Below are positions 3,728-6,700 of a stretch of DNA of 64,000 nt, one piece after another. The number at the start of each line of letters is the position of its first letter. Positions within the stretch are counted from its first letter, which is position 1. Under the pieces are notes generated by a model that saw only the letters and a program-made list of their open reading frames with translations, had not been told where the DNA came from and ran no database searches. Origin of the DNA: Escherichia coli (lineage in GTDB: Bacteria; Pseudomonadota; Gammaproteobacteria; Enterobacterales; Enterobacteriaceae); the NCBI RefSeq assembly GCF_016026235.1, contig NZ_CP065613.1. One strand, 5' to 3'. The translations under genes and the position numbers were made by a program.

Positions 3728-6700
3728 ATGGACGTCAGTCGCAGACAATTTTTTAAAATCTGCGCGGGCGGTATGGCTGGAACAACAGTAGCGGCATTGG
3801 GCTTTGCCCCGAAGCAAGCACTGGCTCAGGCGCGAAACTACAAATTATTACGCGCTAAAGAGATCCGTAACACCTGCACATACTGTTCCGTAGGTTGCGG
3901 GCTATTGATGTATAGCCTGGGTGATGGCGCAAAAAACGCCAGAGAAGCGATTTATCACATTGAAGGTGACCCAGATCATCCGGTAAGCCGTGGTGCGCTG
4001 TGCCCGAAAGGGGCCGGTTTGCTGGATTACGTCAACAGTGAAAACCGTCTGCGCTACCCGGAATATCGTGCGCCAGGTTCTGACAAATGGCAGCGCATTA
4101 GCTGGGAAGAAGCATTCTCCCGTATTGCGAAGCTGATGAAAGCTGACCGTGACGCTAACTTTATTGAAAAGAACGAGCAGGGTGTAACGGTAAACCGTTG
4201 GCTTTCTACCGGTATGCTGTGTGCCTCCGGTGCCAGCAACGAAACCGGGATGCTGACCCAGAAATTTGCCCGCTCCCTCGGGATGCTGGCGGTAGACAAC
4301 CAGGCGCGCGTCTGACACGGACCAACGGTAGCAAGTCTTGCTCCAACATTTGGTCGCGGTGCGATGACCAACCACTGGGTGGATATCAAAAACGCTAACG
4401 TCGTGATGGTGATGGGCGGTAACGCTGCTGAAGCGCATCCCGTCGGTTTCCGCTGGGCGATGGAAGCGAAAAACAACAACGATGCAACCTTGATCGTTGT
4501 CGATCCCCGTTTTACGCGTACCGCTTCTGTAGCGGATATTTACGCACCTATTCGTTCCGGTACGGACATTACGTTCCTGTCTGGCGTTTTGCGCTACCTG
4601 ATCGAAAACAACAAAATCAACGCCGAATACGTTAAGCATTACACCAACGCCAGCTTGCTGGTGCGTGATGATTTTGCTTTCGAAGACGGCCTGTTCAGCG
4701 GTTATGACGCTGAAAAACGCCAGTACGATAAATCGTCCTGGAACTATCAGTTCGATGAAAACGGCTATGCGAAACGCGATGAAACACTGACTCATCCGCG
4801 CTGTGTGTGGAACCTGCTGAAAGAGCACGTTTCCCGTTACTCGCCGGACGTAGTAGAAAACATCTGCGGTACGCCAAAAGCCGACTTCCTGAAAGTGTGT
4901 GAAGTGCTGGCCTCCACCAGCGCGCCGGATCGCACAACTACCTTCCTGTACGCGCTGGGCTGGACGCAGCACACCGTCGGTGCGCAGAACATCCGTACTA
5001 TGGCGATGATCCAGTTGCTGCTCGGTAACATGGGTATGGCCGGTGGCGGCGTGAACGCATTGCGTGGTCACTCCAACATTCAGGGTCTGACTGACTTAGG
5101 CCTGCTCTCTACCAGCCTGCCTGGTTATCTGACGCTGCCGTCAGAAAAACAGGTTGATTTGCAGTCGTATCTGGAAGCGAACACGCCGAAAGCGACACTG
5201 GCTGGTCAGGTGAACTACTGGAGCAACTATCCGAAGTTCTTCGTTAGCCTGATGAAATCTTTCTATGGCGATGCCGCGCAGAAAGAGAACAACTGGGGCT
5301 ATGACTGGCTGCCGAAGTGGGACCAGACTTACGACGTCATCAAGTATTTCAACATGATGGACGAAGGCAAGGTTACCGGTTATTTCTGCCAGGGCTTTAA
5401 CCCGGTTGCGTCCTTCCCGGACAAAAACAAAGTGGTGAGCTGCCTGAGCAAGCTGAAGTACATGGTGGTTATCGATCCGCTGGTGACTGAAACCTCAACC
5501 TTCTGGCAAAACCACGGCGAGTCGAACGATGTCGATCCGGCGTCTATTCAGACTGAAGTATTCCGTCTGCCTTCGACCTGCTTTGCTGAAGAAGATGGTT
5601 CTATCGCTAACTCCGGTCGCTGGCTGCAGTGGCACTGGAAAGGTCAGGATGCGCCGGGCGAAGCGCGTAACGACGGTGAAATTCTGGCGGGTATCTACCA
5701 TCACCTGCGCGAGCTGTACCAGGCCGAAGGTGGTAAAGGCGTAGAACCACTGATGAAGATGAGCTGGAACTACAAGCAGCCGCACGAACCGCAATCTGAC
5801 GAAGTGGCAAAAGAGAACAACGGCTATGCGCTGGAAGATCTCTATGATGCTAATGGCGTGCTGATTGCGAAGAAAGGTCAGTTGCTGAGTAGCTTTGCGC
5901 ATCTGCGTGATGACGGTACAACCGCATCTTCTTGCTGGATCTACACCGGTAGCTGGACAGAGCAGGGCAACCAGATGGCTAACCGCGATAACTCCGACCC
6001 GTCCGGTCTGGGGAATACGCTGGGATGGGCCTGGGCGTGGCCGCTCAACCGTCGCGTGCTGTACAACCGTGCTTCGGCGGATATCAACGGTAAACCGTGG
6101 GATCCGAAACGGATGCTGATCCAGTGGAACGGCAGCAAGTGGACGGGTAACGATATTCCTGACTTCGGCAATGCCGCACCGGGTACGCCAACCGGGCCGT
6201 TTATCATGCAGCCGGAAGGGATGGGACGCCTGTTTGCCATCAACAAAATGGCGGAAGGTCCGTTCCCGGAACACTACGAGCCGATTGAAACGCCGCTGGG
6301 CACTAACCCGCTGCATCCGAACGTGGTGTCTAACCCGGTTGTTCGTCTGTATGAACAAGACGCGCTGCGGATGGGTAAAAAAGAGCAGTTCCCGTATGTG
6401 GGTACGACCTATCGTCTGACCGAGCACTTCCACACCTGGACCAAGCACGCATTGCTCAACGCAATTGCTCAGCCGGAACAGTTTGTGGAAATCAGCGAAA
6501 CGCTGGCGGCGGCGAAAGGCATTAATAATGGCGATCGTGTCACTGTCTCCAGCAAGCGTGGATTTATCCGCGCGGTGGCTGTGGTAACGCGTCGTCTGAA
6601 ACCGCTGAATGTAAATGGTCAGCAGGTTGAAACGGTGGGTATTCCAATCCACTGGGGCTTTGAGGGTGTCGCGCGTAAAGGTTATATCGCTAACACTCTG

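Follow-up and report, generated by a model that had tools for sequence, protein, structure and literature searches.

The SECIS element of fdhF is the experimentally dissected prototype among these signals, and the element of fdnG is one of those on which the study of bacterial selenocysteine recoding was founded. Sec-tRNA(Sec) is the product of selC and is charged through SelA and SelD. For K-12 fdnG, Berg et al. (1991) reportedly identified the UGA as a selenocysteine codon, and Berg, Baron and Stewart (1991) reportedly showed that the stem-loop is essential. These two studies (J Biol Chem 266, 22380 and 22386; cited in PMC13188914) are the experimental proof for that gene. According to a review, Liu et al. 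(1998) placed the minihelix 11 nt from the UGA with a bulged U17 and with G23 and U24 at the apex, U17 and G23 being the bases that contact SelB (PMC8659212). The bSECIS model describes an in-frame UGA within the coding region and a stem-loop directly downstream, with an upper stem of 4-16 bp, a loop of 3-9 nt carrying a G within its first two positions (usually G and then G or U), an apical loop that lies 16-37 nt past the UGA and an MFE of −7.5 kcal/mol or lower (PMC13188914). With the UGA positioned in the A site, the SECIS-tethered SelB complex bridges the intersubunit space; RF2 is blocked by it and Sec-tRNA(Sec) is delivered (PMC5311926).

The fdnG gene considered here lies in a 64,000-nucleotide stretch of Escherichia coli DNA (contig NZ_CP065613.1), the whole of which is referred to as the window, and the positions of its features are listed in Table 1. 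The ORF caller splits the gene into 3728..4315 (195 aa) and 4364..6775 (803 aa), both in the same frame. The initial annotation had taken these for two parts of one frame joined by a single TGA, and this was borne out by the conceptual translation of 3728-6775, in which the TGA at 4313-4315 is the sole internal stop among 1015 codons and the true stop is at 6773-6775. The frame is open from 4316 on and continues for 819 uninterrupted codons beyond the TGA; the second ORF seems to begin at 4364 because the ORF lister takes the first ATG. The N-terminus carries the twin-arginine signal SRRQFFK. When Cys was put at codon 196, the joined protein scored 1622 bits against TIGR01553 (cutoff 814), in a single alignment that passes through the TGA and places residues 2-1014 on profile positions 1-1009. 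The solved FdnG structure, 1kqf_A, aligns end to end with 99.6% identity and has the non-standard residue X196 opposite the TGA. In the two nearest genomes (99.9% and 99.8% identical) RefSeq holds one fdnG CDS of 3048 nt that is not a pseudogene.

Table 1. Features of the fdnG locus and of ddpF, in window coordinates
Feature	Position	Strand	Details and basis
fdnG, formate dehydrogenase-N alpha subunit	3728..6775	+	3048 nt, 1015 codons, single internal TGA; TIGR01553
UGA codon 196, almost certainly read as selenocysteine; Mo-ligand position of FdnG	4313..4315	+	Frame; 1kqf_A X196; Sec/Cys alternation in homologues
Rfam SECIS_3 (RF01989), full match	4310..4368	+	84.3 bits; model positions 1-59 of 59
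11-nt spacer from UGA to apical minihelix; 4318-4325 is the 5′ arm of the predicted lower stem	4316..4326	+	Fold; fdhF register
Putative SelB-binding apical minihelix GGUAGCAAGUCUUGCUCC	4327..4344	+	Fold; covariation; broken in Cys homologues
3′ arm of the predicted lower stem, partner of 4318-4325, G4356 bulged	4350..4358	+	Fold only
fdnH, iron-sulfur beta subunit, same operon as fdnG	6788..7672	+	TIGR01582, 482 bits; nearest-genome annotation
fdnI, cytochrome b gamma subunit, same operon as fdnG	7665..8318	+	NF007558, 487 bits; nearest-genome annotation
ddpF	13280..14206	−	In-frame TGA 13850-13852, codon 119

The locus is very close to that of K-12, where the operon and its neighbours are the same (yddG, fdnGHI, yddM, adhP). 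The two fdnG genes are 98.6% identical in nucleotide sequence and the proteins share 1011 of 1015 residues, the substitutions at 342, 372, 493 and 666 all lying outside the element. No nucleotide differs from K-12 fdnG between −60 and +120 relative to the TGA, a segment that takes in the TGA itself and the 60 nt after it. Across the species, the 81 nt at 4295-4375 occur unchanged in 5368 of 5433 E. coli records, at two places per genome (fdnG and fdoG). That a sequencing or assembly error put the TGA there is vanishingly unlikely, as nothing specific favours it and both K-12 and thousands of independent assemblies carry the same base.

That the TGA is instead a nonsense lesion, leaving fdnG a pseudogene that gives only a fragment of 195 residues, would agree with the mechanical ORF call that splits the gene, and gene decay does occur in this strain, given that the same window has a genuine TGA lesion in ddpF and an adjoining deletion of 7.4 kb. 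A lesion in fdnG is nevertheless exceedingly improbable. The TGA and its flanks are those of K-12 and of nearly all the E. coli records counted above; the gene has kept a further 819 open codons, and only four residues of the entire protein differ from K-12; Sec196 of 1kqf is the residue aligned with this codon; a SECIS model matches the sequence that follows; and TGA occupies this column in at least 77 FdnG-type loci from many phyla.

The TGA in ddpF is of another kind. In the nearest genomes this codon is CGA (Arg), and no 100% match to the ddpF sequence was found among complete E. coli genomes. The Rfam scan of the 64-kb window gave no SECIS model match at the ddpF TGA, and the 48 nt downstream of it fold with −10.3 kcal/mol, which is no better than shuffled sequences (z +0.87). 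Relative to strain EC2641 there is a deletion of 7,355 bp with its junction at about 15166, by which an N-terminal fragment of dosC is fused to ddpD and ddpC, ddpB, ddpA, ddpX and dosP are lost. The ddpF TGA is a private nonsense mutation (CGA to TGA), and the operon that holds it is decayed. The initial annotation had set ddpF against fdnG as a TGA without a SECIS element; with the ddp operon decayed the contrast is correct, but the coordinate had to be corrected to 13850-13852.

Directly downstream of the fdnG TGA, the Rfam model SECIS_3 is matched over its full length with a score well above the gathering score of 63 (84.3 bits; E = 1.3e-19 for a 6 kb search and 1.4e-18 for the whole window). 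It is the sole gathering-level Rfam match in the 64-kb window. Structure prediction of 4316-4360, which had been proposed as a check, returned a hairpin with −13.8 kcal/mol. Its apical stem in the predicted fold has 7 bp, formed by 4327-4328 with 4343-4344 (G4327-G4328 with C4343-C4344) and by 4330-4334 with 4338-4342, and it is interrupted by a single bulged U (4329) and capped by the three loop bases GUC (4335-4337). The minihelix 4327-4344 taken alone folds in the same way, as ((.(((((...))))))), with −4.5 kcal/mol. Below it, an internal loop of C4326 opposite 4345-4349 leads to a predicted lower stem of 4318-4325 with 4350-4358. The hairpin core had initially been described as GCAAG-T-CTTGC. 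The palindrome GCAAGTCTTGC is indeed located at 4331-4341, but the geometry with a 1-nt loop was wrong: such a loop cannot close, so the inner G and C stay unpaired, the loop is GUC, and G4335 and U4336 are exposed.

When the U of the UGA is numbered 1, U17 is 4329, G23 is 4335 and U24 is 4336, and the fdnG sequence thus has the 11-nt spacer, the bulged U17 and the loop G23/U24 that characterise an E. coli-type SelB-binding minihelix. It also falls within the bSECIS description. The TGA at 4313-4315 is in frame and is followed by the hairpin at 4318-4358, the loop has 3 nt (GUC) and opens with G4335 and U4336, the stem has 7 bp with one bulged U, and 19 nt (4316-4334) separate the UGA from the first loop base. 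The predicted −13.8 kcal/mol is likewise below the MFE limit of that model, although the limit is lenient, shuffled sequences averaging −9.4 to −10.4 kcal/mol.

A comparison with the fdhF and fdoG elements, also proposed with the initial annotation, agreed with a SECIS assignment in both cases. In K-12 fdoG, the formate dehydrogenase-O paralogue at a separate locus (operon fdoGHI), the TGA and the following 60 nt are identical to the window and the Sec codon is number 196 as in fdnG. The fdhF element, which belongs to SECIS_2 (RF01988), is in the same register. Its UGA is followed by CACGG as in fdnG, and the two have in common the 11-nt spacer, the positions of the GG/CC pairs, the bulged U17, G23 and U24, as well as a similar predicted stability (−14.2 kcal/mol in fdhF and −13.8 kcal/mol in fdnG). 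They differ in that the fdhF minihelix has 17 nt and a 4-nt loop, GGUC, whereas that of fdnG has 18 nt, an extra A-U pair and the 3-nt loop GUC. Directly above the bulge, fdhF has a U-A pair where fdnG has A-U, and the lower stem and 3′ flank of fdhF are unlike those of fdnG. The window scored only 28.8 bits on SECIS_2 (gathering score 70), against 84.3 on SECIS_3, because fdhF differs in the loop, in the pair above the bulge and in the lower stem. The fdnG element is base for base the one already known from K-12, and a piece of textbook E. coli biology.

The stability of the hairpin was assessed by comparing folds with dinucleotide shuffles. For 4313-4360 (−13.8 kcal/mol) z was −1.44 and 21 of 200 shuffles were as stable; the corresponding values were −1.70 for 4316-4360, −2.06 for the minihelix 4327-4344 and −0.77 for 4310-4368. 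The stability of the fdnG hairpin is by itself not beyond chance, and it was not counted as evidence since z was only −0.8 to −2.1. The K-12 fdhF element is likewise unremarkable (z −0.85 relative to shuffles). The absence of a stable hairpin, which had been named as the observation that would speak against recoding, is a weak test for that same reason: the z of fdnG is modest and that of the prototype is −0.85. It is the covariance-model match to SECIS_3, not the stability, that puts the fdnG element beyond chance.

A hairpin of this modest stability might also be an incidental by-product of encoding the conserved active-site peptide HGPTVASLAPTFGRG, with no role in UGA decoding. This was addressed with homologues having either Sec or Cys at the same position. 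One genome per species was scanned with GCNCGNGTNTGHCAYGGNCC, which encodes A-R-V-[Sec/Cys]-H-G-P, gathers Sec and Cys types together and leaves the apical hairpin unspecified. At least 120 stretches were obtained, and the matches listed comprised 77 FdnG-type Sec loci (51 distinct 59-mers), 4 FdnG-type Cys loci, 9 FdhF-type Sec loci, 10 FdhF-type Cys loci and 20 chance matches. Sec and Cys alternate at the codon-196 column of the homologues among these listed matches. Covariation was evaluated in an alignment (A1) of the 51 distinct Sec-type FdnG 59-mers among the matches listed, using the Rfam structure. In these sequences the whole structure was 90.2% paired compared with 83.9% in shuffles, and none of 500 shuffles reached 90.2%; when the partners were slid, pairing fell to 28-50%. 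The apical helix was 96.9% paired, with compensatory change at four of its seven pairs in the same 51 listed sequences. Two of the covarying apical pairs link third codon positions, one with GC in 38, AU in 5, CG in 4 and GU in 2 and the other with AU in 31, CG in 17 and GC in 1 of the sequences listed. The loop GU was present in 49 of the 51.

The Cys homologues among the matches listed have largely lost these features. In the four of FdnG type, 3.5 of 7 apical pairs could be formed on average versus 6.78 of 7 in the Sec type, and in the ten of FdhF type 2.8 of 6 versus 6 of 6; the GU loop was absent from most of the listed Cys homologues. Of the matches listed, 10 Sec and 8 Cys loci were compared with the Rfam SECIS models; 6 of the former and 0 of the latter reached the gathering score. 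Among these sequences the apical stem covaries in the TGA-bearing orthologues and is broken in Cys homologues even though the peptide is similar.

The lower stem behaves differently. No compensatory change was found in it among the 51 listed Sec-type sequences, in which the 5′ arm is largely fixed by GCNCGNGTNTGHCAYGGNCC. Its pairs are kept equally in the listed Cys homologues, and its arms lie in the invariant His-Gly-Pro and Gly-Arg-Gly codons. Two of the lower-stem pairs in the Rfam consensus are A-G and A-C in the fdnG sequence, and the MFE lower stem is shifted by one in register relative to that consensus with G4356 bulged. RNAalifold on alignment A1 recovered the apical stem, but the lower stem in part only. 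The lower stem 4318-4325/4350-4358 is accordingly given here as a predicted helix, not as an independently supported one. The conservation of U17 is uninformative as well, because this base is the middle one of a Val codon and does not vary in the Cys homologues either.

A hairpin that merely follows from the peptide would account for the lower-stem pairs retained in Cys homologues, for the invariant U17 and for a fold not significantly more stable than shuffles. It is at odds with the loss of the apical stem and GU loop in Cys homologues of very similar peptide, with the covariation of pairs that join two third codon positions, with the third-position identity between fdnG and fdoG described below and with the stem-loop reportedly being essential in K-12 fdnG (Berg, Baron and Stewart 1991), and we regard it as very improbable. 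Recoding is the reading that the evidence favours: 4313-4315 is almost certainly the selenocysteine codon (Sec196) of fdnG, and 4316-4360 a bacterial SECIS element. The initial claim that the TGA is recoding and not a lesion is upheld by the SECIS_3 match, X196 of 1kqf_A, the identity with K-12 and the covariation of the apical stem.

The paralogues fdnG and fdoG are 74% identical overall, with an identity of 0.55 at third positions. From the TGA to +62, all 21 of 21 third positions are identical compared with 55% gene-wide, and no identical run between the two genes is longer than the 71 nt that coincide exactly with 4310-4380 of the window. Within one genome, such identity is a mark of constraint on the RNA itself. 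The identity continues for 20 nt beyond the 3′ end of the hairpin (4361-4380). RNA-level constraint might reach past the classical SECIS into this segment, for example by tuning the positioning of SelB or of the ribosome or the competition with RF2, or the run might reflect gene conversion between the paralogues; these suggestions are very unlikely to hold, as the signal is weak, about six extra identical third positions being expected by chance, on our estimate, in about 3% of cases at 0.55.

By the mechanism established for E. coli, the mRNA directly 3′ of the UGA would fold into the hairpin, with the minihelix 4327-4344 presenting the bulged U4329 and the loop bases G4335 and U4336. Domain 4 of the elongation factor SelB would bind the minihelix, SelB carrying GTP and Sec-tRNA(Sec). 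As the UGA enters the A site, the 11-nt spacer would set the SECIS-tethered SelB across the intersubunit space, and the UGA would be decoded by Sec-tRNA(Sec) with release factor 2 excluded, translation then running to the stop at 6773-6775. The product would be a Tat-exported catalytic subunit of 1015 residues in which molybdenum is ligated by Sec196. We infer the same mechanism here because the element is identical to that of K-12, and SelB binding and Sec insertion would be expected in this strain on that ground.

Whether selABCD are present elsewhere in the genome had been raised as a further check. The Rfam scan found no tRNA-Sec in the 64-kb window, and the sel genes are outside it, the gene order in the window following the narU-to-lsr region of K-12. 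Among 5426 complete E. coli genomes, selAB were present in 5425, selD in 5425 and selC in 5424, and by this frequency in the species the Sec machinery is presumably present in the genome studied here.

For annotation, the value of the locus is that mechanical ORF calling splits fdnG, while the correct description is one selenoprotein gene in which the TGA is Sec. A stable hairpin after a TGA is a poor discriminator of recoding; good discriminators are a covariance model, the contrast between Sec and Cys homologues, and synonymous-site conservation between paralogues.

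The longest run of identity between fdnG and its paralogue fdoG of formate dehydrogenase-O (K-12 copy, locus L002) is 71 nt in two genes that are 74% identical overall, and it covers exactly the selenocysteine codon and the SECIS element, continuing for approximately 20 nt beyond the 3′ end of the hairpin. Downstream of the same operon, 3′ of fdnI, a cluster of REP/BIME-like palindromes was observed, which on both strands gave Rfam matches below threshold to naRNA4 (38.2 bits, gathering score 59.5) and ES036 (30.5 bits, gathering score 37.6).

Among the matches listed by the one-genome-per-species scan for selenocysteine and cysteine homologues, at least four genes of the FdnG or FdhF type that carry an in-frame TGA scored below gathering level with every Rfam SECIS model, and their gene context is clear despite these scores. 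The apical sequence is divergent in the Desulfovibrio locus L046 and in L101: ACCGGCUCUGGCAG.

The ddpF gene contains a TGA in place of the CGA for Arg119, which is retained at this position in both of the nearest genomes, and no complete E. coli genome held a 100% match to the ddpF of the window. The TGA is a private nonsense change. The Rfam search of the window gave no SECIS match at this codon, and the sequence 3′ of it folded no better than shuffled sequences. Next to ddpF, comparison with E. coli EC2641 showed a deletion of 7,355 bp, the missing segment being positions 15167-22521 of the EC2641 sequence L128. The deletion has placed an N-terminal portion of dosC directly against a ddpD gene whose first codons are missing, and ddpC, ddpB, ddpA, ddpX and dosP do not occur in the window. 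Separately, about 1.45 kb elsewhere in the window had no counterpart in EC2641 by local BLAST.

Features of the window and comparison loci with TGA-bearing genes
Feature	Window position	Description	Basis
fdnG-fdoG identical run	4310-4380
REP/BIME-like cluster	8392-8509
ddpF codon 119	13850-13852 (−)	gene 13280..14206
Deletion junction	about 15166	adjoining ORFs 15146..15952 (−) and 14199..15149 (−)	comparison with EC2641
EC2641-unmatched segment	46747-48197	autotransporter region between hipBA and lsr operon	local BLAST
L021		Bryobacteraceae (Acidobacteria); TGA-bearing, below all SECIS gathering scores
L046		Desulfovibrio; TGA-bearing, below all SECIS gathering scores
L043		Haemophilus; TGA-bearing, below all SECIS gathering scores
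L101		TGA-bearing, below all SECIS gathering scores

In the nearest relative, the locus is interrupted by IS1 elements and narI, yddL, maeA and ddpB are among its pseudogenes; these insertions and pseudogenes are absent from the window. Most of the 5434 matching E. coli records are about 98.8% identical to the window over fdnG, and because an identity of at least 99% was found in only two of them, FDAARGOS_943 and EC2641, the window derives from an uncommon lineage.
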